Assembly: GCA_964501795.1 (NCBI GenBank)
Contig: CAZCUH010000003.1
Location: 1 to 30,965, forward strand
DNA: 30,965 nt
Origin: an uncultured Sulfurospirillum sp.
Lineage (GTDB): Bacteria; Campylobacterota; Campylobacteria; Campylobacterales; QNZT01
Reading direction: 5' to 3'
The first letter of the stretch is position 1. Each line of letters opens with the position of its first letter. The position numbers were made by a program, and so were the translations under genes. Below the pieces are notes generated by a model. It had not been told where the DNA came from. It ran no database searches and saw nothing but the letters and a program-made list of their open reading frames with translations. This document shows, one piece after another, positions 2,172 to 30,905 of the stretch.

Positions 2172-2730
2172 GGGGGTAGATACTTCAGGGAAAAGTACAC
2201 AGGTGGATTTGCTGCATGCCTGTTTCCCTAATGCCATCAAGACCAAAGAACCAGGGGGAACCGCTTTGGGTATGACCTTGCGTGAGCTGATACTGCATCA
2301 AGGGGTACACAACCATAAAACAGAACTGTTTCTTTTTTTAGCAGATCGCGCTGAACACTATCATGATATCATCAAGCCAGCCCTTGATAAGATGATACTC
2401 TCAGATCGTGGGCTCATCTCTGGTATCGCGTATGCCTTGGCAAATCATGAGAGCTATGAGATGGATTTTCTGCTCACACTGAATCGTTTTGCACTCGATG
2501 ATACCCTGCCAGACAAAGTCATCTTGCTCCTGACCAATGAAGCACTCATCAAGGAGAGACTAGGAGAAAAAAATGCCGATTTTATCGAGCAGAGAGGTAT
2601 GGCTTATCTGCTCAAGATACAAGCTATCATGATAGAGGTCATCGAAGCACTAGGTGTGGATGCTATCATGATAGATGCCAACAAAAGTAAAGAAGAAATA
2701 CACCAAGAGATAAAGGATTTTATAGCATGA
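2155..2730 (+). CDS. tmk: Thymidylate kinase
   Basis: FEGVDTSGKSTQ P-loop, KEPGGT, LFLADRAEH, SDR. Start at ATG 2155 after AAGGA (2145-2149). Confidence 0.96.
   Translation: MYVLFEGVDTSGKSTQVDLLHACFPNAIKTKEPGGTALGMTLRELILHQGVHNHKTELFLFLADRAEHYHDIIKPALDKMILSDRGLISGIAYALANHESYEMDFLLTLNRFALDDTLPDKVILLLTNEALIKERLGEKNADFIEQRGMAYLLKIQAIMIEVIEALGVDAIMIDANKSKEEIHQEIKDFIA
2624..2635. repeat. Iterated palindrome CTATCATGATAG, exact copy inside tmk
   Basis: Read directly. Confidence 0.95.
2663..2674. repeat. Iterated palindrome CTATCATGATAG, exact copy inside tmk
   Basis: Read directly. Confidence 0.95.
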
Positions 2731-3929
2731 TACGCGCCTTAAAAGGGATGAAAGACACCCTCGCCCCACAAAACAAAAAATTTGAATATTTTATCGAAAA
2801 CACAACAAAAATTGTCAAAAAATATGGCTATGAATTTATCGAAAGTCCTATATTGGAAGAGACTACTCTGTTTAAAAGAAGTGTAGGAGAAAGTAGCGAT
2901 ATCGTGGGTAAAGAGATGTACCAATTTACGGATAAAGGGGGCAATGATGTCTGCCTACGACCAGAAGGTACTGCGGGTATCGTACGCGCTTTTGTAGAGG
3001 CAAAGATGGATCGTATTGGTGGGATAAATCGTTTTTTCTATTATGGTCCGATGTTTCGCTATGAGCGACCACAGAAAGGAAGGCTAAGACAATTTCACCA
3101 ATTTGGATGTGAGAGCTTCGGGGAATCAAACCCCCTAGAAGATGCCAATATCATTATCATGATACAAGAAATCTTAGACTTCTTTGGAGTCAACTATACC
3201 ATCGAATTAAATTCACTAGGCTGCCCTAGCTGTCTGCCACCATTTCGCCAAAAGCTAGTCGCATTTCTCGATGAAACAGAAGGCTTTTGTGAAGATTGCC
3301 TCAGACGCAAAGAGACCAATCCTATCCGTGTCTTTGACTGCAAAAATCCACATTGCCAAACCCTACTTACCACTGCACCAAGATTGAACAAAGCCTTATG
3401 TCAAGTGTGTCAAAATGATTTTAAGGTCGTAACCAAAACATTGGATAAAGCAAACATCAGCTATACGCTCAATCCAAATCTCGTACGGGGACTTGACTAC
3501 TACTCCAAAACAGCTTTTGAATTTGTAAGCACAGACTTAGGCGCACAAAATGCCGTCGCAGGTGGTGGACGCTATGATAAACTTGTGGAATATCTTGATG
3601 GTCGTCCTACGCCTGCTATTGGGTTTGCCATAGGCATTGAACGGCTATTGGATATGATAGACATCAAAGCCTCAGCAAGAGAGGGGTACTATTTTGGAGC
3701 CCTCACGCAGGAAGCACAAGAAGCCGTTTTTTTACAAGCACACAAACAACGAAAAAAAGGCAAGGTCATCCATAATTATGATGTCAAAAGCCTCAAAGCG
3801 CACCTCAAAGGTGCGGACAAAGCCAATGCAAGATATTGTGCCGTTATAGGTGAAGATGAGTTGAAAAATGCAACGCTTTGGGTCAAAGATTTGCAAGAGA
3901 AAAACGAAGAGATGAGACCTTTAGACTAA
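2727..3929 (+). CDS. hisS: Histidine--tRNA ligase
   Basis: LRPEGTA, FRYERPQKGRLRQFHQ, LVRGLDYY, GGGRYD, GFAIGIERL. Confidence 0.98.
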   Translation: MIRALKGMKDTLAPQNKKFEYFIENTTKIVKKYGYEFIESPILEETTLFKRSVGESSDIVGKEMYQFTDKGGNDVCLRPEGTAGIVRAFVEAKMDRIGGINRFFYYGPMFRYERPQKGRLRQFHQFGCESFGESNPLEDANIIIMIQEILDFFGVNYTIELNSLGCPSCLPPFRQKLVAFLDETEGFCEDCLRRKETNPIRVFDCKNPHCQTLLTTAPRLNKALCQVCQNDFKVVTKTLDKANISYTLNPNLVRGLDYYSKTAFEFVSTDLGAQNAVAGGGRYDKLVEYLDGRPTPAIGFAIGIERLLDMIDIKASAREGYYFGALTQEAQEAVFLQAHKQRKKGKVIHNYDVKSLKAHLKGADKANARYCAVIGEDELKNATLWVKDLQEKNEEMRPLD

Positions 3930-3931
3930 AA

Positions 3932-5761
3932 ATGCAAAATTATGGTATGCAACTTTGGGCTGATGATAACTATAGCATCAGCCAAGATACATTAAGAGTC
4001 AACTTTGCATCCAAGCCTTCACTCTTAGAAATCGTTACTAAAATTCGTCAACAAGGACTGAGAGGTCCTCTACTACTGCGTTTTCCACACCTGATAGAGA
4101 AGCAAATTGATGCACTTTATCAACATTTTAGACGCGTTTTTCAAGAGTTAGATTATCATGGACATTTCCAAGCTGTTTTTCCACTCAAAGTCAATCAATA
4201 TCCAAACTTTGTCAAGCCACTTCTTGAAATTGGCGAAAAATATCACTATGGCTTAGAAGCAGGAAGTAAAGCAGAACTACTCATCGCCATGACTTATACC
4301 AATGAAAATGCCCCTATTCTAGTCAATGGATTTAAAGACAAAGAACTCATCGAGATGGCCTTTTTATCAGCCAAAATGCAACAAGATATCACGCTAACCA
4401 TCGAAGGTATCAACGAGTTAAAAAGTATTATCGCCGTAGCCAAGGAGAAAGGCTCTCCACTACCAAAGATAGGATTAAGAGTTAAGCTCCATAGTGCAGG
4501 TATTGGATTATGGGCAAAGAGTGGTGGTATGAATTCCAAGTTTGGACTCACTTCTACCGAACTCATTGAAGCGATGCAGTTGATGAAAGAGCATGGCTTA
4601 CTTTCGCAATTTACGATGATTCACTTTCATATTGGCTCACAGATGACCAGTATCGCTCCACTCAAAAAAGCCCTGAAAGAGGCAGGAAACATCTATACAG
4701 ATTTAATCAATCTAGGAGCAGATAATTTACATACCATCAACCTAGGTGGTGGCTTGGCAATAGAGTATTCTCAAAATGATGCTTCTCCGCATATTCACTA
4801 CTCCCTTGAAGAGTATGCCAATGATGTCGTCTTTATGCTTCAGAGCATTGCACAAGCAAAAGGGGTCACAGAACCCAATATTACTATCGAATCAGGAAGA
4901 TTTGTCGCTGCACCTCATGCTGTACTCATTGCCCCTGTCTTTGAACTCTTCTCCACAGAATACTCACCACAGGCGCTAAAACTCAAAACAGTCAATCCCC
5001 CTTTGATTGATGAATTAAATGCGCTCTATCATGATATCAATCAAAACAACGCTAGAGAGTTTTTGCATGATAGTTTTGATCATCTTCACTCGCTTTTTAC
5101 ACTCTTTGATCTTGGATATATTGATTTAATTGATCGATCTAATGCAGAGATTTTAGTACATCTTATCATGAAAAAATCTATCTTACTTTTAAAAGATCAG
5201 CATTTAGAGGAACTGTTAAAAATGCAAGAGCATATCCAAGAAAAGTATCTTCTCAACTTTTCCCTCTTTCAAAGTATGTCAGATTTTTGGGGTCTTAAAC
5301 AGCACTTTCCTATCATGCCACTCTCCAAGCTAGATGAGAAAGCAACCCACACTGCCAATCTCTGGGATATCACCTGTGATAGCGATGGAGAGATACCTTT
5401 TGATGAACAAGAACCACTTTATTTACATAGTGTCAATCTTGAAGAAGAAGATTATTTTTTAGCATTTTTTCTCACAGGTGCCTATCAAGAGGTCTTAGGT
5501 ATGCAGCATAATCTCTTTACCCACCCTACTGAAGCGACTATCATGATAGATAGTGATGGTTATAAGATAGAAAATATAAAAGAATCTTCTTCAATAATTA
5601 ACATTTTAGACGATTTAGATTATGATGTGCATGAAATTAAAAAACATTTGCATATGCATATAAATCAAAGTCATTTTATCAAACAAGATGAAAAAGAGAA
5701 TATTTTAACTATTTTAGAATCTTTACTTTCTGAGAATGGCTATTTAAAAACTACAAACTAG
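3932..5761 (+). CDS. speA: Biosynthetic arginine decarboxylase
   Basis: VFPLKVNQ (PLP lysine), GLEAGSKAEL, HFHIGSQ, ESGRFV, DITCDSDG, GAYQEVLG. The start at 3932 (MQNYG) fits homologues better than the ORF-track start at 3878. Confidence 0.96.
   Translation: MQNYGMQLWADDNYSISQDTLRVNFASKPSLLEIVTKIRQQGLRGPLLLRFPHLIEKQIDALYQHFRRVFQELDYHGHFQAVFPLKVNQYPNFVKPLLEIGEKYHYGLEAGSKAELLIAMTYTNENAPILVNGFKDKELIEMAFLSAKMQQDITLTIEGINELKSIIAVAKEKGSPLPKIGLRVKLHSAGIGLWAKSGGMNSKFGLTSTELIEAMQLMKEHGLLSQFTMIHFHIGSQMTSIAPLKKALKEAGNIYTDLINLGADNLHTINLGGGLAIEYSQNDASPHIHYSLEEYANDVVFMLQSIAQAKGVTEPNITIESGRFVAAPHAVLIAPVFELFSTEYSPQALKLKTVNPPLIDELNALYHDINQNNAREFLHDSFDHLHSLFTLFDLGYIDLIDRSNAEILVHLIMKKSILLLKDQHLEELLKMQEHIQEKYLLNFSLFQSMSDFWGLKQHFPIMPLSKLDEKATHTANLWDITCDSDGEIPFDEQEPLYLHSVNLEEEDYFLAFFLTGAYQEVLGMQHNLFTHPTEATIMIDSDGYKIENIKESSSIINILDDLDYDVHEIKKHLHMHINQSHFIKQDEKENILTILESLLSENGYLKTTN
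5538..5549. repeat. Iterated palindrome CTATCATGATAG, exact copy inside speA
   Basis: Read directly. Confidence 0.95.
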
Positions 5762-5775
5762 AAGGGAAATATCCA

Positions 5776-6492: not shown

Positions 6493-6502
6493 AGAAAGAG
6501 AG

Positions 6503-6530
6503 AAAGGGCACCCTCAATAGGATGCCCTTT
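6503..6530. terminator. Probable bidirectional terminator between convergent cysE and the OMP-SPOR gene
   Basis: Inverted repeat AAAGGGCA(CCC)-TCAATA-(GGA)TGCCCTTT, with A/T runs at both ends. Confidence 0.75.
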
Positions 6531-6541
6531 GAGATATAAGA

Positions 6542-7565: not shown

Positions 7566-9383
7566 TTAATAGATATAAAACTTTTTCATAAAGTTCTCAT
7601 CAACATCGAGTAAACCCCTCTCTTGTAGGCTTTTGAGAACATTTTGATCACAGTCTGTATCCTCTGGCCATCTACGAGAAAAGCCATCAATTTCCCCTTT
7701 ATTCGTTGCATCGATACAGATAAATTCCTTTTCTAGCACGACATCACGCGTTGCATCTATGTTATTGACGATACGCCAAAGCAACATATAGGGATTGTCC
7801 AAACTATTTTTATGGCTATCTACAACGATTACTAGCTTTGTATGAGGCTTGATTGCCTTTAATTTTTCAAAACTATCTTTTACTGGCGCTTTTTTATCAA
7901 TTGCGAGGATGACAATAGGTGTTTTTGTATAAGTTTTATACTGTTTGAGTTCACGCACATTAGGCTCCAACGCCTGTACTATATCAAGCAAGGCTTCATC
8001 ACTCACAATCTCTTTCGCTGGAAAGTTGACATTATCACGCGTACAGTCAATACCCAATTTTCCACCATATGCAAAATCATCAGAGGAGTGATCTAGCGCA
8101 TCGCAGACCCCCTCGCTTATCATGATATTCTCTATCTTGACACGATCGAGTATATAATCACTCAAAGCATCATAATCTTCCAAAGAAGGTGCATCTTCAT
8201 TGACAAATATCGCATGCTTGACAAAACTCATCTGTCCAACACCCCAAAATACATGCATAAATTGTTTGGCATGTCCAGGGTATTGGGTCTTCATCTTGGC
8301 AATGATAAGATTATGAAAGACACCATTTTCTGGCATCACATAATCAATCAAGTCAGGTGCCGTCGTACGAAGCAGTGGCAAAAATATCCGCTCCGTCGCC
8401 CAGCCCATATACTTATCTTCCAACGGTGGCTTACCAACCACAGTCGCCAAATAGACAGGATCCTTTTTATGACTGATACAAGTAACATCCATCACAGGAT
8501 ACTCTTCTTCAAGTGTATAGTACCCCGTATGATCACCAAAAGGCCCTTCAATCTCCATCTTAGAAGGATCTACCACACCTTCGATCACAAAATCAGCATC
8601 CTCAGGAATAAACAAATCATTTGTCAATGATTTTACAAGTCGTGCACTCTCACCCTTGATAAAACCATACATCAGTAATTCAAAAACGCCATGTGGTAAA
8701 GGCGCAGTAGCAGCCCAAGTATAGAGTGGATCTCCACCAATGGCAATAGAGACAGGCATCTTTTTACCCGCTTTTTTATATTCATTAAAAAAATTGGCTG
8801 AGTCTTTATGAATCTGCCAATGCATCCCTAAGCGTTTCTCACCATACACTTGCAGACGATACATTCCGAGATTTTTTCGTTCTCCATCTAAAGACTCTGT
8901 ATAGACTTGTCCCATCGTGATAAAAGGTCCACCATCTTGACTCCAAGTCGTTAGTATAGGCATATCATAGAGACTTAGCCTATCATCATGATAGACCACT
9001 TCCTGACAGGCACCTTTAGATTTTAAGCGTTTTGGAAAGACATTTTTAAGTGAAAAAAGCTGTGAGAGCATCCCAAACTTTTCACCCAAAGAGCTAGGTG
9101 GTTTGAGATGTAAAAGTTTTTCGATTTCATCCGCCACATCATCGGCCTTTTTACCAATAAAAAGCTCTGTCGCCTTATGCGAGCCAAAAGCATTCATCAA
9201 GACTGGTGTCGTGAATTTTTTACCCAATCTTTTCGAGACAGGATGTGTAAATAAAAGTGCTTTGGAATCTTGTTTTTTGACTTCAATATAAGCGATGTGG
9301 GGAATTTCTAAATCTATATCCACCTCTGCATCTATCTCTCGCAGAAGATTGTGTTCTTTGAGTAGGGCTATGGCATTTTTCAT
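7566..9383 (-). CDS. ubiD: UbiD-family decarboxylase (menaquinone biosynthesis type in Campylobacterota)
   Basis: DGGPFIT, NLGMYRLQ, MHWQIHKD, EGPFGDHTGYY, GKPPLED. Start 9383 chosen by SD spacing (9386 is possible). Confidence 0.95.
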   Translation of the reverse strand: MKNAIALLKEHNLLREIDAEVDIDLEIPHIAYIEVKKQDSKALLFTHPVSKRLGKKFTTPVLMNAFGSHKATELFIGKKADDVADEIEKLLHLKPPSSLGEKFGMLSQLFSLKNVFPKRLKSKGACQEVVYHDDRLSLYDMPILTTWSQDGGPFITMGQVYTESLDGERKNLGMYRLQVYGEKRLGMHWQIHKDSANFFNEYKKAGKKMPVSIAIGGDPLYTWAATAPLPHGVFELLMYGFIKGESARLVKSLTNDLFIPEDADFVIEGVVDPSKMEIEGPFGDHTGYYTLEEEYPVMDVTCISHKKDPVYLATVVGKPPLEDKYMGWATERIFLPLLRTTAPDLIDYVMPENGVFHNLIIAKMKTQYPGHAKQFMHVFWGVGQMSFVKHAIFVNEDAPSLEDYDALSDYILDRVKIENIMISEGVCDALDHSSDDFAYGGKLGIDCTRDNVNFPAKEIVSDEALLDIVQALEPNVRELKQYKTYTKTPIVILAIDKKAPVKDSFEKLKAIKPHTKLVIVVDSHKNSLDNPYMLLWRIVNNIDATRDVVLEKEFICIDATNKGEIDGFSRRWPEDTDCDQNVLKSLQERGLLDVDENFMKKFYIY

Positions 9384-9411
9384 CATTTTTCCTAAAAAAG
9401 ATTTCTCTAGG

Positions 9412-9461: not shown

Positions 9462-10406
9462 CTAAAATATCTCATTGAGTGCTATTTCTTCTGCCCGTTT
9501 GAGCAGTTTGATAGCACCATTTTCTATCATGATATCTGCAAGTTCTTTGCCCATCTGTTTGTAGGCACTCTTATCACAGAATTTTTTCTCTTTGATGATT
9601 TCATTGCCATCAGGTAAACCCACACAGCATCGAGCAACAATACTCTCACCATCATACTTCGCATTGACACCTATAGGAACTTGACAGCCTCCTTGCAAGA
9701 CCGTCACAAAGTCTCTCTCTACGGTAGTCTCAATCAAGGCATTTTCATCATTGAGTACAGCAATAATCTCTAAAATTTTAGGATCATCAATCGCTTCAAT
9801 ACCAAGAGCTGCCTGTCCCATCGCAGGAATCATCTCTTGCACTTCTATAGGAGTGGCATACCGCACCTCAGCTTGCAATCCCAATCTATTCAACCCAGCA
9901 GTTGCCAAAATGATAGCATCATATTCACCATCTTTAAGTTTTCTGATTCTTGTATTGACATTACCTCGAAGATTTTTAATCTTCAAATCAGGACGCAATG
10001 CCAGTATCTGCATACGCCTTCTCAAACTTGTAGTCCCAACAACAGCACCCTGAGGCAGTGCATCGATATTCTCATATTTTTCACTCAAAAGACAATCACG
10101 CACATCCTCTCGTGCTGTGATAGCACCCAACACAAGCCCCTCAGGAAATTCCATCGGTACATCTTTAAGACTATGCACCGCGATATGTGCACGCCCCTCA
10201 AGCATCGCATCTTCAAGCTCTTTGGTAAATAGCCCTTTACCACCAATCTTTGCCAAAGGAGTATCCAAAATCTTATCCCCTTTTGTTGACATCTCACTAA
10301 GTACAACTTCCATATCAGGAAAGGCTTTCTCAAGTTTGGCTTTGATGTGTTCAGATTGCCATAAGGCTAATTTACTTTTTCTCGTCGCTATGATAAGTTT
10401 TTTCAC
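9462..10406 (-). CDS. hemC: Hydroxymethylbilane synthase (porphobilinogen deaminase)
   Basis: IATRKSKLALWQ, GGKGLFTKELE, HSLKDVP, GTTSLRR, LRGNVNTR, GGCQVPIG. Confidence 0.98.
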   Translation of the reverse strand: MKKLIIATRKSKLALWQSEHIKAKLEKAFPDMEVVLSEMSTKGDKILDTPLAKIGGKGLFTKELEDAMLEGRAHIAVHSLKDVPMEFPEGLVLGAITAREDVRDCLLSEKYENIDALPQGAVVGTTSLRRRMQILALRPDLKIKNLRGNVNTRIRKLKDGEYDAIILATAGLNRLGLQAEVRYATPIEVQEMIPAMGQAALGIEAIDDPKILEIIAVLNDENALIETTVERDFVTVLQGGCQVPIGVNAKYDGESIVARCCVGLPDGNEIIKEKKFCDKSAYKQMGKELADIMIENGAIKLLKRAEEIALNEIF

Positions 10407-11633: not shown

Positions 11634-13325
11634 CTAGAGTCCTTTAATTTTCTCAAATATTGCATCTTTGGAGATACTCTCTTTCTCTAAAGTAGCACGA
11701 TTTACAAGTTGTACTTCTCCCTCTTTAAGACCTTTTCCTATGATGATAGCATAAGGAAATCCAAGTAGTTCAAAATCACCCATTTTAAAGCCAAAACGCT
11801 CATGACGATCATCTAGTAAAACAGAAATCCCAGCATCTCTCATCTGCGTATAAAGTGCTGTTGCAAAGGCAAGTTGTGCTTCATCTTTCATATTTGAAAT
11901 CACGATATCAAATTTAAAGGGAGCTGTTGCCTCTGTCCATAAACAACCTTTTTCATCATGGTGTTGCTCTATCATGACAGCCACCAAACGACTCACTCCT
12001 ATGCCATAAGTACCCATGACAAATGGTTTACTTTTACCATCTCGATCTAAAAATGTTGCACCCAATGCTTCACAATAGCCTGTTCCTAGTTGAAATATAT
12101 GCCCTACTTCTATCCCCTTGGTCATTTCAAGCTTGCTACTACAAGCAACACAAACATCTCCAGCATGCACAGCGGCTATATCATGATAGGAAAACGGCTG
12201 ATTCTCAAAGCTCACACCGATATCATGATAATCTTTTTTATTGGCACCACAAATCAGTGAGTTTGCATCTTTTAAGCTCTCATCAACATAACAATCCACG
12301 CTTTGGTCAAAAGGTCCTATAAAACCTACCACAATACCTGCAGCTTCCAATTCCTCACAACTTACATCTTCAAGTTCTAAGGCTCCACAGGCATTTTGTG
12401 CCTTGACTTCTTGGAGTTCATCGCTACCTCGCAAAAAGAAAAGTACAATTTTCTCAGATGCTTCATAGATTGCTTTTTTCGCAACTGCTTTGACAAAGTA
12501 ATATGGTTCTACTTTGAAAAAGTCACTCAACGCTTCTATGCTCGTAATATCTGGTGTATGAAAAGCACCACCTTGCATCTCTACTTCACCTTCTGGCGCC
12601 GTTGGTACTTGTCGTTTTGCTGCTTCTATATTGGCAGCATAGTCACACTGTGAACAGATGATGATGTCATCTTCACCATTTTCTGCCAAGACCATCAATT
12701 CTCTCGAACCGCTTCCACCTATGGCACCACTATCAGCTTCTACGACACGAAAATCAAGTCCAAGTCGCTGTAATATTTGACTATAAGTCTGCTCCATCAA
12801 GGCATATTCTCGTTTTAAATCTTCAACATTTTCATGGAAACTATACCCATCTTTCATCAAAAATTCACGCCCTCGAAGTAGTCCATATCGTGGTCTCGCT
12901 TCGTCACGAAATTTTGTATTGATTTGATAGAGATTAAGGGGGAGTTGTTTATAGCTTTTGATACGATTTCGTACCAAATCCACCATCGCCTCTTCATGGG
13001 TTGGTCCTAAGACAAATTCATTGTTTTTTCTATCTTTAAAACGCAATAACTCTTTACCAAACTTTGCATATCGCCCGCTCTCTTTCCAAAGCTCCGAGGG
13101 AGTCACAAATCCTAATTGTACCTCTTGACACCCTGCATGTTCTAACTCCTCTTTGACAATCGCTCTTATCTTATCTAAAACAATTTTTCCTAGTGGTAAA
13201 AAGTTATATATCCCTGCGCCTATCTGTGATACAAAGCCACCTCTGACGAGATAAATATGGCTAGGAAGTATGGCATCTTTTGGTGCATCTTTTGTTGTCG
13301 GTGCAAACAGGTTTGTAAATCTCAC
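11634..13325 (-). CDS. proS: Proline--tRNA ligase with editing insertion domain
   Basis: [56 protein letters not shown]. Confidence 0.98.
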
Positions 13326-14650
13326 GCTTTATCCTTTGGTTTTAAATCTTTTTCGATTTGATAATCACATTTATAAGTATCCAATGCTTTTCTTTGCTGT
13401 GCATTGAGTCCGAAAAAAAGTTGAATAGACTGTACAACCGTATCAGACTGAGGCAATTCTGATACATTTTTTAATTTTTTTGTAGGCTCATGCAAGAACT
13501 GATTAAATGCTCCATGAAGTACTTTTTTCATCGATGCTTCATGTTCTTTGGGTATATACCCTTTTTTGATAGCTTTTGCCAGTTCTTTCTCACTGCACTC
13601 CTGCGCCATGTCACGAATCTCTTTGATGAGTGGATCAACAGAAAGGGTTTGAAGCCATTTGAAAAACTCTTCTGTAAACTCTTCGATGATACGATAAGCA
13701 AGCTTCGCATTCTTCTCACGAAGCGCCATATTTTGCTGCATAATTCCTTGTAAATCATCTACCGCATAAACGCTAATATCTTCTTGCTGAGATTCACTAA
13801 TGTCACGAGGTACTGCCAAATCAAACCAATGACGCTTAAATGAGGCTTCTTTTACTATATCTTCTGTGATGATACACTCCGCTGCAGCCGTTGCAGAGAA
13901 AAGCAATCGATAATGATTTACCAAATGTTCTAATTCAGAAAAAGGCTCTACAATCACACTCACACCTTCTATCTGTTCAGCCAATTTATAAGCATTTTCC
14001 ATATTTCTATTGATGATGATGAGATTTGCACCAGCATTGGCTAAATGTTTTGCTGCCAAAGTACTCATCTCTCCAGCACCTACAATAACAGCACTATATC
14101 CTCCCAAGTTACCACCAAAAAGTTCTTTGGCTTTGTTGACTGCAACAGAGGCAACAGAGATAGGATTTTTAGAGATATCTGTCGAATTGCGTATCATCGC
14201 AGCACAACGAAAAGCGTGATGCATCACCCGTGCCATTTTCTGCCCTGAAAAACCATGGTCATAAGAAAATTTAAATGCCTCTTTGACCTGTCCCACGATT
14301 TGTGTCTCACCCACTACCAAGCTATCTAGTGAAGAGACAACAGAAAAGAGGTGATGCACTGCCTTAGCATCTTCATACATCTCACCATTATCACGCAGCA
14401 TATTGATATCAACTTGTGCAAAATCAGCCAAATAGTCATAAACTTTTTCACTGACACCTAACACACTATTGACACTTAAGATGATTTCCACACGGTTACA
14501 AGTTGATAAAAGTATCGTTTCATTGATGTTTGCTAAGGTGTCTAGATAGTGGTAAAAATCTAGCAACTTTTCATCGCTATTAAAGGCAAGTTTTTCGCGT
14601 GTTTCTATCTCTGTATTTTTGTGGGTAAAGGATAGTGTTATATAGTGCAT
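13322..14650 (-). CDS. hemA: Glutamyl-tRNA reductase
   Basis: [38 protein letters not shown]. Confidence 0.98.
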
Positions 14651-15543
14651 TAAAATTCTCTTTCAATCATATTTTTTATCACAGACTCTAAAGCCTCATT
14701 TTTCTCTTCTTTTATCGCATCTAGTGCTTCAAGCCCAAGTTTTTGTGCCAATTGTATAGACTTCTCTATAGCACCACTCTCTATCATGATAGACTTTATC
14801 CAGGCTGCATCTTCACTGCTTAATTGCTTTTTATAGAGTCCTTCTAGCCTCTTTTTCTGCTCCTCATCTATACGATCAAAGAGATAGATATACGGTAAGG
14901 TCGTTTTTCCCTCTTCATAGTCATGTAAAGCGGGTTTGCCCAAGGTATCAGCATCCATCGTGATATCTAAGACATCATCTATGATTTGAAAAGCAAGTCC
15001 AAGATTTTTCCCATAAAGCCCAAAAGCTTCTGCATCCTTATGCGCCAATAAAGCAGCAGATTTTGCCGCAGCTTCTATCAATACCGCCGTTTTTTTATAT
15101 ATCATATCAAAATAGCGCGCTTCATCTAAATTGAGTGATTTTGATAATTCAACATCCATCAATTCCCCAACAGAGAGCATCGTTACCGCATCTGCAACTG
15201 TCTTGGATATCTCTTGTGAAAAAGCCGTAAGAAGAGAAAAGCCCTCTGAATATAAAATATCCCCTAACATGATAGCTGTTTTATTACCAAATTGGGCATT
15301 GATTGAAGCAATGCCCCGTCTTGTATCAGCATCATCGATCACATCATCATGCAGTAAACTTGCAGCATGAATCAGCTCTACAATAGCTGCCAACGAAACA
15401 CTCTCTTCGCTTTCACCTGCTATCTTTAAGATAAGCTTTGCTCTTAAACGCTTTCCAAAAGGAAGCTTTTCATACAATGAAAGTGCATGCGCATCTAACC
15501 CTGCCACGCTCTCATGCATCAGTGTTTCAACTTCTTCTAGCAT
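14650..15543 (-). CDS. ispB: Polyprenyl (octaprenyl-type) diphosphate synthase
   Basis: GKRLR, ELIHAASLLHDDVID, RRG, AFQIIDDVLD, GKP..D..EGK.TLP. Chain length cannot be determined from sequence. Confidence 0.9.
   Translation of the reverse strand: MLEEVETLMHESVAGLDAHALSLYEKLPFGKRLRAKLILKIAGESEESVSLAAIVELIHAASLLHDDVIDDADTRRGIASINAQFGNKTAIMLGDILYSEGFSLLTAFSQEISKTVADAVTMLSVGELMDVELSKSLNLDEARYFDMIYKKTAVLIEAAAKSAALLAHKDAEAFGLYGKNLGLAFQIIDDVLDITMDADTLGKPALHDYEEGKTTLPYIYLFDRIDEEQKKRLEGLYKKQLSSEDAAWIKSIMIESGAIEKSIQLAQKLGLEALDAIKEEKNEALESVIKNMIEREF
14781..14792. repeat. Iterated palindrome CTATCATGATAG, exact copy inside ispB (extends to 14-bp TCTATCATGATAGA)
   Basis: Read directly. Confidence 0.95.
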
Positions 15544-16292: not shown

Positions 16293-17228
16293 TTATGAGA
16301 AAAAATGGCTAATGAGCTCTCGTAAATGGTTATAATCATCTATTCTATTAATTTTATCGCGAAACTCCGAAGCAGCAGGGAAACCTTTTGAATAAGTGTG
16401 CAAATGTTTTCTAAATATTGAAACACCCTTGTCACCATAAAACTCATACATCAAGTCATAGTGTCGTAAAACAATCTCTTTGATCTTCTCTTTTTCTACA
16501 CTTTTTAAACTATTTTTTAATTGGTAAAATATCCATGGATTGCCCACTGCACCACGCCCTATCATGATACCATCACAATTGGTATATTCTCTCACATGCT
16601 GCGCTATCTCCAAGGAAGTGATATCTCCATTGGCAATGACAGGAATATTGACTGCCTCTTTTGCCTCTTTGATAGGCGTATAGTCAATGGGAGCCTTATA
16701 TTTACCAGCTCTAGTTCGTCCATGAAAAGTGATAAAATCAGCACCTGCATTTTCAACTGATTTTGCAATATCTGCTGCAATTTTTTCATTAAATCCCAAA
16801 CGAGACTTTACTGAGGTGTACTCTTTATTGGAATATTTTTTAATGGTTTCAATCACACGAGACATTTGTGGTAAATCCGTTAGTAAAGATGAACCAGAAT
16901 TTTGAGAGACGATTTTGGGAACAGGACATCCACAGTTTAGATCGATCCCATCAATCCCATCAAAATCATTTAAGATAAGCACTGCCTCTTTAATGACATC
17001 AACATCACTACCTGCAATTTGTACGATATAGGGAGACTCACTTGGAGACTTTTCAACCATCTTAAATGTTCGTGAAGAGTGGTATTTTAGTGCATTGGCA
17101 CTTATCATTTCAGATATCGTGACATCTGCACCAAATTCTTTAGCAACAGAGCGGAAAGGAAGATCTGTATAGCCCGCCAAAGGGGCTAACATCACAATAT
17201 CCTTTTTAGAAAAATCTATTGTAGCCAC
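16293..17228 (-). CDS. dusB: tRNA-dihydrouridine synthase (DusB-like)
   Basis: LAPLAGYTDLPFR, SEMIS, DLNCGCPVPKI, HGRTR, NGDI, MIGRGAVGNPWIF. Confidence 0.92.
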   Translation of the reverse strand: MATIDFSKKDIVMLAPLAGYTDLPFRSVAKEFGADVTISEMISANALKYHSSRTFKMVEKSPSESPYIVQIAGSDVDVIKEAVLILNDFDGIDGIDLNCGCPVPKIVSQNSGSSLLTDLPQMSRVIETIKKYSNKEYTSVKSRLGFNEKIAADIAKSVENAGADFITFHGRTRAGKYKAPIDYTPIKEAKEAVNIPVIANGDITSLEIAQHVREYTNCDGIMIGRGAVGNPWIFYQLKNSLKSVEKEKIKEIVLRHYDLMYEFYGDKGVSIFRKHLHTYSKGFPAASEFRDKINRIDDYNHLRELISHFFS

Positions 17229-17234: not shown

Positions 17235-18239
17235 CTATACAAAAAGCTCTGTATCAAAGTTACGACCTTGATCTTTCAAAAAGAGGATATATCTAAATTT
17301 TTGATACTCATCTTCGGAGGCATTTGCCAAAAATTCTCTTGCATCATCTATCATCTGAAGTTCAAATAAGACATAAAGATATGCCTCTCCAGCGGTATTT
17401 GGAAATTCATGCGCAAGCTTTCCTGCGAGGTTCAAGAGTCTATCAGGCACAAGCTTTGCTCTTAATTTTTTCATAAGAGCAATAAAATCTTCACTTGTAT
17501 AATCCAAATGCTTTATATAGGCGATGATTTCATCATCACCCAATTCTAAAGCATCTTCTTTGGCATTCATGCGATTTATCATGATATCAAAAACTTCTCT
17601 TGATGGTTCGACTTCATACTTGACAAGTTCTGACATCGGTGCATAAGTAGCAAAGGTCAAAAACGCTTTTTTACAAGTCGCTTTATCATCACATCTTTTT
17701 AAAATAGTGCTTGCATAAGTCTTGTCTTGTGCCATTTGATTTAAAGCATTTTGTAACATATATGGGTTACTTGGCTTTAAGTCATACTTTGTCAAGTCCA
17801 CGACTTCACCATTTTCTAAACGCTCTTTTGCCTCTAAGATATCTTGCACATCGTCATTGTAGATACGATATTTTTTTGCTTTATAGGGATCAGAATTTAA
17901 AAGAGGCAAAATCGCACCAGGCAACTTAAAAAAATCACTTTTATAATCTGCTTTTATCTCTTTACCCAAAAGTGCTTCTTTCGCCGCTTGTGTAAATTTC
18001 TCTCCATCTTTTTTTACACGCCTAAATCGTATCGTATTGGTAGTGCCGTAAAATATAAGGTGCGCGATAGTGGCTAAGAAAAGTAAAATAACTGGTAAAA
18101 TAACCCATATAGCTACAGGTAGTGTAATAGGTACATCAACGATATTTAAAGTATATTTTCCACCTTCAAAACTATAAACATACACACCCAAAAGGATGAT
18201 AAAAAATAGCCCAAAACCAATATACTTTTTTAATCCCAT
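17235..18239 (-). CDS. Conserved membrane protein: two N-terminal TM segments plus a soluble helical region
   Basis: Two hydrophobic stretches at the N-terminus; lies between dksA and dus, the arrangement I recall from C. jejuni. Confidence 0.75.
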   Translation of the reverse strand: MGLKKYIGFGLFFIILLGVYVYSFEGGKYTLNIVDVPITLPVAIWVILPVILLFLATIAHLIFYGTTNTIRFRRVKKDGEKFTQAAKEALLGKEIKADYKSDFFKLPGAILPLLNSDPYKAKKYRIYNDDVQDILEAKERLENGEVVDLTKYDLKPSNPYMLQNALNQMAQDKTYASTILKRCDDKATCKKAFLTFATYAPMSELVKYEVEPSREVFDIMINRMNAKEDALELGDDEIIAYIKHLDYTSEDFIALMKKLRAKLVPDRLLNLAGKLAHEFPNTAGEAYLYVLFELQMIDDAREFLANASEDEYQKFRYILFLKDQGRNFDTELFV

Positions 18240-19093: not shown

Positions 19094-20011
19094 CTACGAT
19101 AAAAGATCATCTTCAACATAATCTTCTAGTCGTCTTCCTCTTTTACGCACATTGCGCGTATCATGATGACCTATTCTATAATCTAGAAAATGTAAGAGGT
19201 CGCCTACTGTATTTTTCATACGGCTTCGTCTCACTATCATATCCACGAATCCTTTTTCAAGTAAAAATTCAGCAGTTTGAAAGCCTTTTGGTAAATCTGC
19301 ACCAATAGTCTGCTTAATCACTCTTTGTCCTGCAAATCCTATCAATGCACCAGGCTCTGCGATGATAATATCTCCAAGCATCGCAAAGGAAGCACTCACA
19401 CCACCCATGGTAGGGTCGGTTAAAATGGATATAAATGGTAAGCCATTTTCTGAAAGTTTTTTTAATGCAGCAGAGGTTTTTGACATCTGTAAAAGTGAAA
19501 AAGTACTCTCTTGCATCCTTGCACCACCACTCGCAGAGACGATGATAAATCCTTCTCTCTTCTCAATAGCACGATGCACCGCTCGCACAATCTTTTCACC
19601 TTCAACAGAGCCTAAACTTCCTCCCATAAATTGGAAATCAAAGACTACTAATTGCACAGGTACTCCATTGATAGTGCACTCTCCTGAAATGACAGAAGAT
19701 TTTTTACCTGTCTTTTTCTCACTCTCTTCGACTCTTTTTTTATACGATTTTTTATCCACAAATTTTAGAGGATCAATAGGCGCTAAATTCCCATCCATCT
19801 CTACAAAACTACCTTCATCTACCAAGTATGTAATTCTCTCACTCGCAGAAATTCGCATATGATACTTGCATTTAGGACAGACTTGTAAAAGATTTTCTAC
19901 CTCTTTATAGTACATCAAAGCATTACAGTTTTTACACTTTACCCAATGACTTGGTGCCTCTGGTTGCTCTGGTTGTTTCCTAAAAGTGTTAAATATGTCA
20001 CCAAAATTCAT
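19094..20011 (-). CDS. accD: Acetyl-CoA carboxylase carboxyltransferase beta subunit
   Basis: WVKCKNC...VCPKC zinc finger, [40 protein letters not shown]. Confidence 0.98.
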
Positions 20012-22140: not shown

Positions 22141-22141
22141 C

Positions 22142-25100
22142 TTAATCTCCCTCCTCAGGATTTAACGGCGCATTGGCTAAGTCTTTAGGTCGTATAATCC
22201 AAAAGTCTCGCAAAGTATGTCTAAAGTTATCCAAAATATATTGCGCTTTTTCACTCGATGTTTCATCGACATAATTTTTGAGTAATTTTTTGATGAAATG
22301 GCGCTCTTCATCACTCTCATCTGTATCAATTCTTTTAGCAGAAACAAGCTCTTGATTTAAATTATCGATAAAGTCATGATTTTCATCATAAACAAATGCA
22401 ACACCACCGGTCATACCAGCACCAAAATTCACACCAGTACGCCCCAATATCACAACTACGCCACCTGTCATATATTCACAAGGGTGATCACCTGTTCCCT
22501 CAACGATAGCCGTAGCCCCAGAATTTCTTACACAGAAACGCTCTCCAACAGATCCAGCGATATAGAGTTTTCCACCTGTCGCACCATAAAGACAGGTATT
22601 TCCTCCACAAGAAAATTTATCACTCTGTGTTTTAGGCGTGATGACTATCTTACCACCATGCATACCTTTACCGATATAATCATTACCAGCGCCATGAAGA
22701 TAAATCGAGATACCAGAACTCAAAAATGCCCCTAGCGACTGTCCTGCGACACCTTGGAGTTTAAAAGTGATACTATCATCAGCCAAACCTTTATTGCCAT
22801 AATACTTTGCAATCTCACCAGAGATTAGCGTTCCAAAACTTCTGTTGATATTTTCTATCTCTTTTTTCAGTACCATTTTTTCATTTGGATTGGAGATGAC
22901 TGGATAGACTTCTTTTAAAATCTCTTTCTCAAAGGCATTTTTATCAAAGGGTTCATTAGAAGTTCTTTGACAAGTATCCACACCATCTAGTCGCATCAAA
23001 ACAGATGAGAAATCAAACTTTTTCGCCATAGGATCATCAATCACTTTGAGCAAATCACTTCTTCCTATGATCTCTTCCATACTCTCATACCCCAAGTTTG
23101 CTAACATCTCACGCACATCTTCAGCAAGCAAGGTAAAGTAATTGACTACTCTATCTACAGTTCCTACAAAATGTTCTCTAAGCACTTCATCTTGTGTCGC
23201 AACACCGACTGTACATTTGTTGAGATGACAGATTCGCAGCATTCTGCATCCTACTAGTGTCAATGCCCCCGTACCAAAAGCGTAACTCTCCGCACCCAAC
23301 ATCGCTGCTTTGATGACATCTAGTCCCGTCTTGAGACCACCATCAGTTTGTAAATGTACCATCTCTCGAAGTCCATTGACCTTTAAAGCATTGTGCGCTT
23401 CAGTGAGTCCTAACTCCCAAGGATTACCCGCATATTTGATAGAAGTTAGTGGTGCAGCACCTGTACCACCATCACCACCAGAGATAATGATTTTATCTGC
23501 ATAGGATTTTGCAACACCTGCGGCAATTGTCCCTACACCTGCAGTTGATACCAGCTTCACTGTTACTGTTGCATCAGGATTGATCTGCTTCATATCAAAA
23601 ATAAGTTGTGCCAAATCTTCAATCGAATAGATATCATGATGAGGCGGTGGAGAGATCAATGTCACACCCGGCGTGGTATAGCGAAGGGATGCTATCAACG
23701 GTGTCACTTTATGACCTGGTAGCTGTCCACCCTCACCTGGTTTTGCCCCTTGTGCCACCTTAATCTGTATCTCTTCAGCAGAACGCAGATACTCAGGGGT
23801 CACACCAAATCGTCCAGAGGCAATCTGCTTGATTTTTGATCGATAAGAACTCTTTAAGCGAGAAGGCGCTTCTCCACCCTCACCACAGTTTGACTGTCCA
23901 CCAATACGATTCATCGCTTCACCCAAAGCTTCATGTGCTTCAGGAGAGATAGATCCAAGACTCATTGCAGCAGTTGCAAAACGCTTAAAAATCTTCTCAA
24001 TAGGCTCTACTTTATCGATAGAGATAGGTTTTCTATCAGAGGCAAACTCAAAGAAATCCCGAATCATCTTTTTATCACGATTATTGACCAAATCTTTAAA
24101 GGTATTATAATCTGCTTTATCATTAGAAATTGCTGCATCATGAATAGCATTGATTACCTTTGGTGAATAATCATGATACTCAAATCCTTCAAGATGCTTG
24201 TGAAAACCACCCAATTCTAGAGGGAAGAGTTTTTTGGTTCTATCTACCTCTAGTGCATTGGCATAGTCACGATTCAGTCGCGCTTCAATATCTTCATAAC
24301 CCAATCCCGAAATATAGACATGAGAATCTCTAAAACAGTCATCCATAATCTCTTGAGAGAGCCCAATCACATCAAAAAGTGATGAATTTCTATAAGAAGC
24401 AATCGTAGCGATACCCATCTTGGACATGATTTTTAAAAGCCCGCCATTGAGTGAAGCATGCACATTTTTAAACTTCTGTTTTTGCTCATAGCCTGAGAGA
24501 TTATTTTTCTTGCTCACTTCTAATACTGTAGCATAGAGAAGATAAGGGTAAATAGCATTGGCACCATAAGCAATCATCGTTGCACAAGAGTGTGAATCTA
24601 TCGCCTCTGCTGTCATCGCAATCGTAGAGGTTAAGTGTCTCAATCCTGCATCTAGCAAAGTTTGATTAAGACGACCAACCGCCATTGTCATAGGAATACT
24701 TTTCATATTTTCTTGATTACATCTATCATCCAAGATTATAATTCTCACACCATCATCTCTGACTGCTTTAATCACTCTATCGCTGAGTGCATCCAAAGAT
24801 TTTTTCAAATCTTTTTCAAACAAAGTAGAGAAAAATTCACTCTTGTAGTGTGCATTATATCTTGGATTTTCAGGGTCACCAAAAGCCCGCAATACTTGTA
24901 ACTTCTCTTCCATCAAGATAGGACTAATCGCTTTGAGACGAATCGCATGTTCTGGATCTTCTGCCAGGATATTTCTCACTTCTCCAAAACCAGTATTGAG
25001 ACTCATGACCACTCTTTCACGAATAGGATCAATAGGAGGATTGGTGACTTGTGCAAACTTTTGTTTAAAAAAGTCTGTGAAATTTCGTTGTTTTTGTGAA

Positions 25101-26581: not shown

Positions 26582-26611
26582 GCTCTTGTACCTTTGTAAA
26601 GAAAGTTTGAG

Positions 26612-26617
26612 ATTATA
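26612..26617 (-). promoter_or_regulatory. -10 box TATAAT upstream of gltB
   Basis: Plus-strand ATTATA is TATAAT on the minus strand, 30 nt upstream of the gltB start. Confidence 0.65.
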
Positions 26618-26690
26618 CTTAAAGTAAGGTTAGAAAGGAATAAAATGTGAAAACTAGAGCAAAAACTCCCTATTTTTAGGAGATTAAACC

Positions 26691-26714
26691 CTATCATGAT
26701 AGCTATCATGATAA
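26691..26714. repeat. Tandem copies CTATCATGATAG-CTATCATGATAA in the gltB/recO divergent intergenic region
   Basis: Read directly; 26692-26713 is a perfect 22-bp palindrome. Confidence 0.95.
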
Positions 26715-26752
26715 AGGCTCTTACAATAACAAAACTTAAAGTATCTTTTAGC

Positions 26753-26758
26753 TAAAAT
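26753..26758 (+). promoter_or_regulatory. -10 box TAAAAT upstream of recO
   Basis: GCTAAAAT with the recO ATG starting 6 nt later; no SD seen. Confidence 0.5.
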
Positions 26759-26763
26759 AAAAT

Positions 26764-27381
26764 ATGCAAGGTTATATCCTCAATATCAATAAAGTCAAAG
26801 ACGAAGACCTCATCGTCACTATCCTAACGGAGAATAGACTCAAGACCCTCTACCGTTTTTATGGAGCTCGCCATGCCAATATCAATCTAGGCTACAAGAT
26901 AGATTTTGAAGCTGTATCTTCCGCAAAATCTACCATTTCAATGCTGCGTGAAGTCCTACCACTTTCTGCAAAATGGATGCTTCAAAGCAATCGATTTTTT
27001 ATCTGGCAACAATTCATCAAACTGATGTTTAAACATCTTAAAGATGTCACTGACTTAGACCCCTTCTATTTTACGCTCCTCGAAGAGAGTGCTATCATGA
27101 TAGCCAAACAAAACCCCAAGCGTGTCATGATAGAGTCTTATCTACAACTTTTAGAGTATGAAGGACGACTTCATGACGATTTTCAATGTTTTATCTGTGA
27201 TGAGATGATAGAGTCTCACCTCGTGCTAGCTAGAAGTTTTCTGCCCGCACATCAAGCTTGTGTCTATGGAAGTGTGCTTGAGAAGCAAAAGATTACACAG
27301 CTCTTTTCTAGTAAATCTACCCTCTATCTTGAAGATGCTGAGGTTGAACATCTATGGCAACTGCTCCTAGAAGGCTTTTAA
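26764..27381 (+). CDS. recO: Campylobacterota-type DNA repair protein RecO
   Basis: MQGYIL...VKDEDLIVTILT...LYRFYGARHA.INLGYKIDFE N-terminus; YLQLLEYEGRLH; CFIC...HQAC zinc site. Confidence 0.9.
   Translation: MQGYILNINKVKDEDLIVTILTENRLKTLYRFYGARHANINLGYKIDFEAVSSAKSTISMLREVLPLSAKWMLQSNRFFIWQQFIKLMFKHLKDVTDLDPFYFTLLEESAIMIAKQNPKRVMIESYLQLLEYEGRLHDDFQCFICDEMIESHLVLARSFLPAHQACVYGSVLEKQKITQLFSSKSTLYLEDAEVEHLWQLLLEGF
27092..27103. repeat. Iterated palindrome CTATCATGATAG, exact copy inside recO (extends to 14-bp GCTATCATGATAGC)
   Basis: Read directly. Confidence 0.95.
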
Positions 27382-30300: not shown

Positions 30301-30884
30301 TCGATTGAGAGTTGATCGCCAATACCATGTCGCATAATTTCAAGATAAAAATCATCGCCAAATATATCCTTGTACTCTAAAGCCACTTCAACAGCGCGTT
30401 CATACCCTTTGGCACCATTTTTAACATTTCTCTCACTCAAATTTAGATGCCAATTAACTTCACCTTGCAGACAAGCAGAAGAACAGATAAGTCCTTGTGA
30501 ATGTGCGCGCAAAAGCTTTTTATTGATACGAGGATAATAATAAAATCCATTGATATAACTCTGAGAACTAAGATACATCAAGTTTTTATACCCTATCTCA
30601 TTTTTTGCATACAAGCAGAGATGAAAGCGCTGTTTTGTACTCTTATCGCCTAATTCATCTTGGTTATGCACATAGGCTTCCATACCAATAATGGGTTTAA
30701 TACCCTCTTTTTTCATCGTCACATAAAAATCAATCGCCCCAAACATGTTGCCATGATCTGTCATCGCTACAGAATTCATACCTAGTTTTTTGACTTTTTT
30801 TGCCAATGCTTTTATCTTATTTGCCCCATCTAGCAGGGAATATTCCGTATGTAGATGCAGGTGTGTAAAGTTAGTTTTGCTCAT
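27378..30884 (-). CDS. dnaE: DNA polymerase III alpha subunit
   Basis: PHP domain HLHLHTEYSLLDG, GPGRGSAAGSL, PDIDVDF, GTHAAGVV, FAGYGFNKSHS, OB-fold. No intein seen. Confidence 0.99.
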   Translation of the reverse strand: MSKTNFTHLHLHTEYSLLDGANKIKALAKKVKKLGMNSVAMTDHGNMFGAIDFYVTMKKEGIKPIIGMEAYVHNQDELGDKSTKQRFHLCLYAKNEIGYKNLMYLSSQSYINGFYYYPRINKKLLRAHSQGLICSSACLQGEVNWHLNLSERNVKNGAKGYERAVEVALEYKDIFGDDFYLEIMRHGIGDQLSIDEQIIQVSQETGIKIIATNDTHYLEQRYADSHEAFMCIAMNKEFDDPNRLRHSVHEFFVKSPEQMEVLFADIPEAITNTQEIVDKCNLEIKLGDPTPPNFKFVKEYAIADGVPEYDNDADYFVFKCKQGLEKRLQFVPKERHQEYKDRLDFEMDIINSMHFPGYMLIVWEFIAESKKRGVPVGPGRGSAAGSLVAYSLEITDIDPMKYDLLFERFLNPERVSMPDIDVDFCQKRRGEIIDYVVDKYGRNNVAQVITFGKLLAKGVIRDVARVMAMPYAQADAMAKLIPDELGITLEEAYKKEPKIKELIGSDAQAKRVWEFALALEGLNRNSGTHAAGVVMSNEELWHKAPLYKSTKDDSLVTQYSLKYLEDVDLIKFDFLGLKTLTVLDDAFKLIKARYNKDINFNEIDFDDPEVYKLIQSGATVGLFQIESSGMQSLNERLAPTNFEDLIAVLALYRPGPMESGMLDDFIERKHGREQIVYDFPELEPILKPTYGVIVYQEQVMQIVQTIGGFSLGGADVVRRAMGKKIKEEMDRLKGEFADGAVKKGFDRKKSEDLFDLIVKFAGYGFNKSHSAGYAMITFETSYLKTYYPQEFMAALLTSEADNTDKVVKYVDEVKRLGIKLLPPSVAESLISFAPKESDEEHAILFGLGAIKGVGSKAIESVIEARDEKPFKDLNDFIARIDTGKVNKRVLEALIKSGGMDCFGYSRRTLLDNIEKIVAAGADAARAQKMAENSLFGDSEEMMSVNIELENGEEYDAKTILQLEKETLGFYVSGHPLDEFREQITATPHTLSSEIDTLADGSKTLFIGRVEEVVQKISKKGNKFGIVNLMDLHGNIEMMVFEKMMIQLQMMDLNRPVAFKVTVSKDDRGTNIRVNKIVELDDAKKEKVEIKKEIIPQKPLTPVFVKIELKDEMTTLEQLHQLVQKYPGRRPLKLIISSKLQDVVIESNIQVSDAIVEELEKVTSLKVAV

Positions 30885-30893
30885 AATATACCC

Positions 30894-30905
30894 CTATCAT
30901 GATAG
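30894..30905. repeat. Iterated palindrome CTATCATGATAG, exact copy just upstream of dnaE
   Basis: Read directly. Confidence 0.95.

Follow-up and report, generated by a model that had tools for sequence, protein, structure and literature searches.

A CATG-centred palindromic word that is hyper-abundant in one genus-level clade of Campylobacterales and is kept at the DNA level

The DNA analysed here, called the window, is a stretch of 30,965 nucleotides (positions 1 to 30,965 of contig CAZCUH010000003.1, forward strand, in GenBank assembly GCA_964501795.1) from an uncultured Sulfurospirillum sp. that GTDB places in QNZT01. An earlier note, made from the letters alone, had pointed out a palindrome centred on CATG that recurs in the window and had suggested that it is part of a genome-wide system in a Campylobacterota genome. 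We report that this word, (Y)TATCATGATA(R), is confined to one clade and is kept there at the DNA level. The source assembly (G000; 1.61 Mb in 210 contigs, 39.5% GC, 82.5% complete) carries 1236 copies of the 10-mer TATCATGATA and 453 of the 12-mer CTATCATGATAG, about one copy per 1.3 kb, so the window is not its sole site, and the organism does belong to the Campylobacterales. A third-order Markov model with the word masked in training, a type of null that the earlier note had proposed, predicts 10 and 0.55 copies, respectively. Within the window there are 17 exact 10-mers and 7 exact 12-mers, for which dinucleotide shuffles give 0.11 and 0.01, and if one mismatch is allowed the sites number 28, 11 of them one-mismatch copies, where 2.6 are expected. 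The coordinates earlier reported for the 7 exact 12-mers and 17 cores are all correct and the seven near matches reported with them are genuine one-mismatch copies, to which we add four more at 2723, 5164, 11739 and 15265; the GC content, put at about 37%, is 38.0% in the window.

The enrichment is specific to the full length of the word. The most abundant 8-mer of G000 is TATCATGA and the consensus around the copies is YTATCATGATAR, the base 5' of the core being C in 63% and T in 24% and the base 3' of it G in 63% and A in 25%. Two and three bases out G/C is weakly preferred, and the information is nil past about 14 bp; thus we are dealing with a 10-12 bp word and not with a piece of a longer repeat. 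There are 64 palindromic 10-mers centred on CATG, and in G000 the word has 1236 copies while the other 63 add up to 58, which means that a reader of the full 10-12 bp must exist. Single-base variants are common at no position of the 12-mer other than the outermost; the two positions that follow show modestly raised transitions, and variants at the inner positions stay at background. Three mechanisms were weighed, namely, a tag for natural transformation, a bias of repair or mutation that is coupled to methylation and a protein that binds the chromosome, and all three need a protein that reads the full palindrome. The scarcity of inner one-base variants is in favour of the repair bias, and the perfect palindrome suits a dimeric chromosome-binding protein.

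Coding status was taken from a crude call based on open reading frames (ORFs) that covers 90% of G000. Among the coding copies 572 read x-IMI-x, 321 read YHD and none is in the third frame. Restriction to two frames, the frequent supply of start or stop codons by the copies and the fact that ATC, GAT, CAT and TAT are preferred codons might suggest that codon or peptide usage yields the word as a by-product. However, the third frame is empty simply because it would contain two stop codons (TGA and TAG), and when synonymous codons were shuffled within each gene, so that all proteins and the codon usage were kept, 154 ± 9 coding 10-mers were obtained against 893 observed (5.8-fold) and 17 coding 12-mers against 332 (19-fold); this is the codon-preserving null that the earlier note had called for. 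About 80% of the copies are intragenic, and their density is higher in spacers (1.42 per kb) than in genes (0.69 per kb), which also speaks against a codon by-product. The tripeptide IMI occurs 622 times where 84 are expected (7.4-fold) and is spelled with the word in 612 of these, and YHD occurs 396 times where 24 are expected (16.6-fold) and is spelled with it in 392. The proteins are distorted; the word overrides protein sequence.

Overlaps with gene ends and starts were seen throughout G000, for example in the region of the window ORF at 2140-2730. The TGA of the word terminates 52 ORFs (TCA TGA TAG, a double stop), 93 crude ORF calls begin at its ATG and 46 spacer copies lie no more than 10 nt past a stop codon. 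This pattern is probably a by-product of the start and stop triplets within the word.

Related genomes, a survey of which the earlier note had also proposed, were examined as 40 relatives and then as 400 genomes sampled across Campylobacterales. The word is present among them, yet it is limited to one genus-level clade: hundreds of 12-mers were found only in the three species of the genus, G000 (453), G001 (262; 89% complete) and G002 (583; the NCBI metagenome-assembled genome 'Campylobacterales bacterium Dive100_bin4.86'), and the next best genome has 16. When contigs were ranked by their prolyl-tRNA synthetase (ProRS), a metagenomic contig at 80% identity has the word at 0.4 per kb, and in about 20 kb of each of the contigs at 75, 74 and 72% it occurs 1, 0 and 0 times, respectively. 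The boundary of the clade is sharp, falling between 80% and 75% ProRS identity, and about 20 species-level members lie at or above 79%. The closest cultured organisms are Nitratiruptor and Nitrosophilus at 68-69%. Independent assemblies from NCBI, JGI and ENA carry the word, which argues against an assembly or adapter artefact.

The state of the window copies in orthologous DNA was read from alignments to G001, G002 and the outgroups G003, G013 and G023. Fourteen of the 17 10-mer copies are inside nine different ORFs. The copies are as follows, with the strand of the ORF in brackets.

2359..2368, exact 10-mer in the 2140-2730 (+) ORF, reading H-YHD-II; G000 only, with 3 of 10 bases different at the G002 site and differences in G001 and G003 too
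2624..2635, exact 12-mer in the 2140-2730 (+) ORF, reading QA-IMI-E; exact core also in G001 and G002, near match in outgroup G003
2663..2674, exact 12-mer in the 2140-2730 (+) ORF, reading DA-IMI-D; gained in the G000 lineage by about 6 base changes within 12 bp, relatives having Y-I-T/C-I-D
3155..3164, exact 10-mer in the 2727-3929 (+) ORF, reading II-IMI-Q; present in each of the three species
5027..5036, exact 10-mer in the 3878-5761 (+) ORF, reading L-YHD-IN; G000 only
5538..5549, exact 12-mer in the 3878-5761 (+) ORF, reading AT-IMI-D; G002 differs by a single C>T mismatch (TATTATGATA)
8118..8127, exact 10-mer in the 7566-9386 (-) ORF, reading EN-IMI-S; also in G002 but not in G001
9525..9534, exact 10-mer in the 9462-10406 (-) ORF, reading AD-IMI-E; all three species, outgroups G013 and G023 being 2 mismatches off
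12179..12188, exact 10-mer in the ProRS gene (11634-13325, -), reading S-YHD-IA; also in G002
12221..12230, exact 10-mer in the ProRS gene (11634-13325, -), reading D-YHD-IG; also in G002
14781..14792, exact 12-mer in the 14650-15543 (-) ORF, reading KS-IMI-E; exact core in G001, one-mismatch form in G002
16560..16569, exact 10-mer in the 16293-17228 (-) ORF, reading DG-IMI-G; all three species and, exceptionally, outgroup G023
17577..17586, exact 10-mer in the 17235-18239 (-) ORF, reading FD-IMI-N; all three species
26691..26713, two copies that abut at a distance of 12 bp (cores 26692 and 26704), in the spacer that separates the divergent ORFs 22142-26581 (-) and 26764-27381 (+); in G002 the second core is exact and the first has 8 of 10 bases; one of the 62 close pairs of G000
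27092..27103, exact 12-mer in the 26764-27381 (+) ORF, reading SA-IMI-A; G002 has TATTATGATA
30894..30905, exact 12-mer in the spacer immediately past the start of the 27378-30884 (-) ORF
1446..1455, one-mismatch copy TGTCATGATA
8984..8993, one-mismatch copy CATCATGATA, outermost base
11970..11979, one-mismatch copy TATCATGACA
19159..19168, one-mismatch copy TATCATGATG, outermost base
23632..23641, one-mismatch copy TATCATGATG
24169..24178, one-mismatch copy AATCATGATA
27123..27132, one-mismatch copy TGTCATGATA

Copies arise in place by base substitution and not by insertion: the ortholog alignments of the window have substitutions without any change in length, and copies that are shared within the genus have near matches in the outgroups. 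Lineage-specific copies can involve several clustered changes, as at 2663, where relatives have Y-I-T-I-D and G000 has A-I-M-I-D. Clustered multi-base changes of this kind, which make copies within otherwise well-conserved genes, are in favour of a repair bias. On a larger scale G000 and G002 were compared over 210 kb of aligned DNA at 79.5% identity, in which 104 copies are common to both. They make up 70% of the aligned copies of G000 and 75% of those of G002; the corresponding figure for an average 10-mer is 15.3%. Among the copies that are not shared, 33 differ from the word by one mismatch and 38 by three or more; the two-mismatch class is scarce, 6 against about 24 expected, and this depletion of two-mismatch states is again in favour of a repair bias. 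The one-mismatch forms are mainly transitions (T1>C 13, C4>T 6, A2>G 5). Several copies are displaced by 10-20 nt within the same stretch in the two species, which indicates positional turnover; that turnover retains a copy in the neighbourhood and that orthologous conservation is high would suit a chromosome-binding protein. A DNA-level force on the 10-12 bp word is required, one that prevails over protein sequence, holds copies through about 20% divergence and is absent in the sister lineages.

The sole DNA methyltransferase common to G000, G001 and G002 is P0001, a D12-class protein of 333 residues (PF02086 at 159 bits; DPPY at residue 210, or position 223, 0-based, in the 347-aa form of the ORF). 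Its orthologs, at 77-82% identity, were found only in word-bearing genomes and contigs and in every one of these that was examined, at a fixed site near xth and selO with no endonuclease adjoining; the gene is inherited vertically as an orphan in the word-bearing clade. More distant homologs, at 56-65% identity, occur widely among Bacteroidota, spirochaetes and other Campylobacterales and usually have an upstream partner gene, which is PF05315 ICEA in 8 of 80 homolog loci and in the family member of G013 (243 and 384 bits). IceA1 of H. pylori is an NlaIII-like CATG endonuclease and the adjoining hpyIM codes for a CATG methylase (PMC4202330; work cited in PMC3261200). Judging from this gene neighbourhood, the clade enzyme is predicted to be an orphan CATG adenine methyltransferase, and since the homologs adjoin IceA/NlaIII-type CATG endonucleases the central CATG of the word is probably N6-adenine methylated; each copy of the word would then have two methylated adenines. 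The earlier note had asked for a survey of CATG methyltransferases that co-occur with the word, and its cautious reading is supported: an orphan gene of the M.HpyI/M.NlaIII type is present in all word-bearing genomes and contigs examined. As a caveat, the same family, at 56-64% identity, is also present in 11 of 38 relatives without the word. These 11 relatives rule out the methyltransferase as a sufficient cause, and it cannot be the whole cause.

Other explanations centred on methyltransferases were tried and rejected. A change in the specificity of P0001 has just 11 clade-fixed differences at otherwise conserved sites to rest upon, some of them clustered in residues 301-325, and this is too slight to be interpreted. 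G000 also has three C5 cytosine methyltransferases (C23:9421-10377, C95:2563-3819 and C109:1126-2124); since neither G001 nor G002 has any of the three conserved, they count as strain-specific and were discarded as the cause. A sequence search of solved structures gave no useful match for P0001 or its commonest neighbour. Between selO and P0001 in G000 contig C64 there is a nucleotidyltransferase/HEPN-like pair (L005:520-1315; 140 and 153 aa) that is found in G000 only, and this slot has different small genes in other clade members.

Copies are dispersed on every contig of G000, and in 5-kb windows their number has a mean of 3.6 and a variance of 4.1, which is near Poisson. Close pairs are about 4-fold in excess: at 15-30 bp there are 52, where 12 would be expected. 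Distances of 18-24 bp from centre to centre are preferred, the intervening sequence is not conserved, and 25 of 62 such pairs are intergenic. In G002 the largest gaps without the word are 14.4 and 12.2 kb (L170:14316 to L171:8670 and L179:19371 to L180:11620, in contigs C45 and C1), and they correspond to a type I-F CRISPR-Cas locus with Csy1 and Cas2-3 and to a glycan cluster of low GC (31.5%) with NeuB, a cytidylyltransferase and an epimerase. Both are classic acquired islands. Since the two largest gaps are acquired islands, the word separates native from acquired DNA. The first 3.4 kb of G000 contig C109, which holds a C5 methyltransferase 72% identical to a G003 gene, has zero copies, as expected of a recent import.

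Based on these findings we propose, tentatively and as a possibility short of an even chance, that the word is a methyl-marked self-DNA tag for natural transformation. A symmetric (dimeric) sequence-specific protein would read the whole 10-12 bp word during transformation, when DNA is taken up or when the incoming DNA is processed, and the orphan M.HpyI/M.NlaIII-type enzyme would N6-adenine methylate the central CATG. Fragments with good copies would preferentially be taken up or recombined, new copies would spread by molecular drive and existing copies would resist loss. We rank this proposal first, ahead of the repair bias and the chromosome-binding protein, which seem to us less likely still and on a par with each other. 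It is favoured because molecular drive explains the cost to proteins, and because the density, the enrichment in spacers and at gene ends, the pairs, the imprint on peptides and the absence from islands all match those of the DNA uptake sequences (DUS) of Neisseriaceae and the uptake signal sequences (USS) of Pasteurellaceae. It is also favoured because there is a direct precedent in the same order for methylation-dependent uptake at a palindrome (PMC8468864) and because the cyanobacterial palindrome HIP1 is now tied to methylation-dependent transformation (PMC13756078; 10.1101/2024.09.10.611283). Slightly more doubtful is the fuller version, in which the word would be the first palindromic, methylation-marked uptake or self-recognition sequence and a clade-specific dimeric reader of N6-methyladenine (m6A) in the CATG within TATCATGATA would select self DNA.

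Several points weigh against a transformation tag. The known uptake sequences are non-palindromic, the word-bearing organisms are uncultured, and a repair bias or selection for chromosomal sites would yield every sequence feature that was found. The occurrence of the P0001 family in relatives without the word counts here too, and P0001 became associated with the clade once only in evolution, so that this association is not independent evidence. ComEC, DprA and 2-3 secretins, which all three genomes have, make transformation plausible, but such competence genes occur almost everywhere and are no proof. A gene for a reader or receptor of the word was not found. Lastly, on the long contigs of G002 the spacing of the word is not more regular than random (coefficient of variation 1.15 against 0.96 simulated).

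The first alternative is a methylation-coupled bias of repair or mutation, either a ratchet of the type proposed for highly iterated palindromes (HIPs) or something like very-short-patch repair, in which near-copies beside a methylated CATG would be corrected to the word and the word would have no function. We consider it unlikely. Apart from the mismatch patterns described above, it has in its favour the conservation of an orphan CATG-type methyltransferase in the clade, the published ratchet model of Elhai for HIPs (PMC4390886) and the presence of a MutS with the MutS_I mismatch-binding domain in G000 (C85:3418-3750) and G002 (C23:2389-2703). These MutS ORFs are unusually long, about 970-990 aa, and H. 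pylori and C. jejuni are not known to have canonical MutS1. However, no MutS_I match was found in G001, which is 89% complete, and no homolog of the short-patch repair protein Vsr was found in the three genomes. In addition, m6A produces no deamination mismatches, and the P0001 family has no enrichment effect in 11 relatives. The predicted target of the methyltransferase is 4 bp and the word is 10-12 bp, with other CATG palindromes unenriched, so that a separate recogniser would be needed.

The second alternative, to which we give no more credence than to the repair bias, is that the copies are sites for an abundant chromosome-organising or replication-linked protein (SeqA, Noc or SlmA-like, or a nucleoid protein), perhaps when hemimethylated, with weak selection on their local density. 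In addition to the palindromic symmetry and the turnover within neighbourhoods, the presence of copies on every contig with near-Poisson counts is in line with this, as are the 4-fold excess of pairs at 18-24 bp, the 25 of 62 pairs that are in spacers and the unconserved sequence between the members of a pair. On the other hand, the spacing is irregular and no 10.5-bp helical period was found beyond the single pair distance, the sole periodicity being the 3 bp of coding sequence. A candidate for such a protein was not found, islands of 12-14 kb that lack the word are tolerated, and more than 1200 very weakly selected sites would be hard to hold without drive.

That the close pairs are RNA or DNA hairpins, acting as terminators or cruciforms, with single copies as spill-over, is very improbable. 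Convergent spacers are the densest (2.65 per kb), the 46 spacer copies within 10 nt of a stop codon would fit, and copies 18-24 bp apart could pair as a 10-12 bp stem, but about 80% of the copies are single and intragenic, half of the pairs are intragenic and the pairs have no T-run after them. The remaining explanation, that the word is a codon or peptide by-product, a degenerate mobile element (miniature inverted-repeat transposable element, MITE, or repetitive extragenic palindrome, REP) or an assembly or adapter artefact, is refuted by the protein-preserving shuffles, the higher density in spacers, the flanks that are uninformative past about 14 bp, the ortholog alignments that have substitutions without length change and the independent assemblies.

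Word-free relatives and viruses were also searched. In the word-free sister contig L189:1-19946 (JGI 3300045637, ProRS 75%) the GATC-centred palindrome TAGATCTA occurs 7 times in 20 kb, where composition gives about 0.8, and it may be a different iterated palindrome of a neighbouring lineage. As a sister-lineage equivalent of the word it was rejected, being not hyper-abundant in the 40 relatives (the highest counts being 109 against a control of 54 in G003 and 81 against 5 in G004), and another candidate, TTACATGTAA, was enriched in none of the 40. Close pairs of the word were found in 38 viral contigs, none of which has the dispersed pattern of the host. The four densest, the only ones inspected (L157, L145, which is IMGVR_UViG_3300005573_000082, L143 and L147), have the 10-mer within a tandem array of repeats of about 171 bp or within a gene of repetitive sequence in AT-rich viruses; the viruses are unrelated and uninformative about word-carrying phages.

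One other element of the window was conserved in relatives. Positions 328-431 (about 100 nt, upstream of the 473-1162 ORF) are 83-88% identical to contigs of relatives, which is above the flanking genes, with matches at two places in G001, at one each in G003 and G002, the latter non-syntenic, and a weaker one in G013. G000 has one copy of the element, which may represent either a small mobile element or a small RNA that is conserved. Rfam and tRNA scans gave no match to it or elsewhere in the window.

The closest known counterparts are HIP1 (GCGATCGC) and the alternate HIPs of cyanobacteria (PMC4390886, PMC5861425, PMC13756078), and HIP1 enhances transformation in a way that depends on methylation (PMC13756078; 10.1101/2024.09.10.611283). 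Both HIP1 and the word are short perfect palindromes that are hyper-abundant in genes and spacers above codon-aware nulls, are written into proteins and are conserved at orthologous positions. The core of HIP1 matches a resident orphan methyltransferase, and for the word such a match is predicted from the IceA/NlaIII-type neighbours of the homologs of P0001. Of the features of HIPs, a genome-wide excess that is independent of codons, is found in coding and non-coding DNA, is not part of a longer repeat and is conserved at orthologous positions above the surrounding sequence was found for the word. The function of both is debated, with transformation now favoured for HIP1. They differ in that the word belongs to Campylobacterota and is longer and AT-rich, with 10-12 bp and a CATG core; that HIP1 is marked by GATC/CGATCG methylation, whereas the word is presumed to have m6A made by an M.HpyI/NlaIII-type enzyme; that HIP1 is phylum-wide, whereas the word is limited to a genus-level clade; and that the quasi-periodic spacing of HIP1 is not seen for the word.

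With DUS and USS the word shares a density of about one copy per kb, a length in the range of 9-12 bp and lineage specificity, as well as an effect on peptide content, enrichment in spacers and at gene ends, close pairs and the absence from foreign islands, and accumulation by molecular drive would explain the protein cost. DUS and USS, however, are non-palindromic and are read by a known receptor or uptake machinery, whereas the word is a perfect palindrome with a putative methylation site in it, and no receptor gene for it was found. C. jejuni, of the same order, takes up only DNA that is methylated by CtsM at the palindrome RAATTY (PMC8468864), so that in both cases self DNA would be marked by adenine methylation at a palindrome; RAATTY is 6 bp, degenerate, common by chance and not specially enriched, whereas the word is 10-12 bp and about 100-fold enriched, and the methyltransferase of its clade is predicted to be in the CATG family. 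P0001 probably belongs to the family of the iceA-hpyIM and NlaIII systems, since its homologs are paired with IceA/NlaIII-type endonucleases, but in the word clade there is no endonuclease and P0001 is a fixed chromosomal orphan near xth and selO. Unlike REP and MITE elements, the word has no conserved flank, is about 80% intragenic and changes by substitution only.

Full-text literature searches for the phrase 'highly iterated palindrome' gave matches in cyanobacterial papers only, and TATCATGATA was found only incidentally, in primer or sequence text; as the earlier note had supposed, no description for Campylobacterota was found in the searchable literature. The results that are new here are the CATG-family assignment predicted for the orphan enzyme, the contrast between this palindrome and the 63 others, the figures for orthologous conservation, the acquired islands without the word and the sharp boundary of the clade.

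Hyper-abundant words are known from few groups, HIP1 in cyanobacteria and DUS and USS in Neisseriaceae and Pasteurellaceae, and what HIP1 is for has been disputed for thirty years. The word described here is an independent example from another phylum, with a different sequence and a different methylation site. Its origin is recent enough that word-bearing and word-free sister lineages are only about 25% apart in a housekeeping protein, and this contrast between sisters is a natural route to the machinery that writes and reads such words. How strongly proteins can be reshaped by a force at the DNA level is seen from two tripeptides in 7-17-fold excess, and in these uncultured bacteria of sulfur environments the word is a practical marker of native versus acquired DNA. 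If it is indeed a methylation-marked uptake word, then the C. jejuni rule, the Neisseria words and HIP1 would be joined in a single mechanism.

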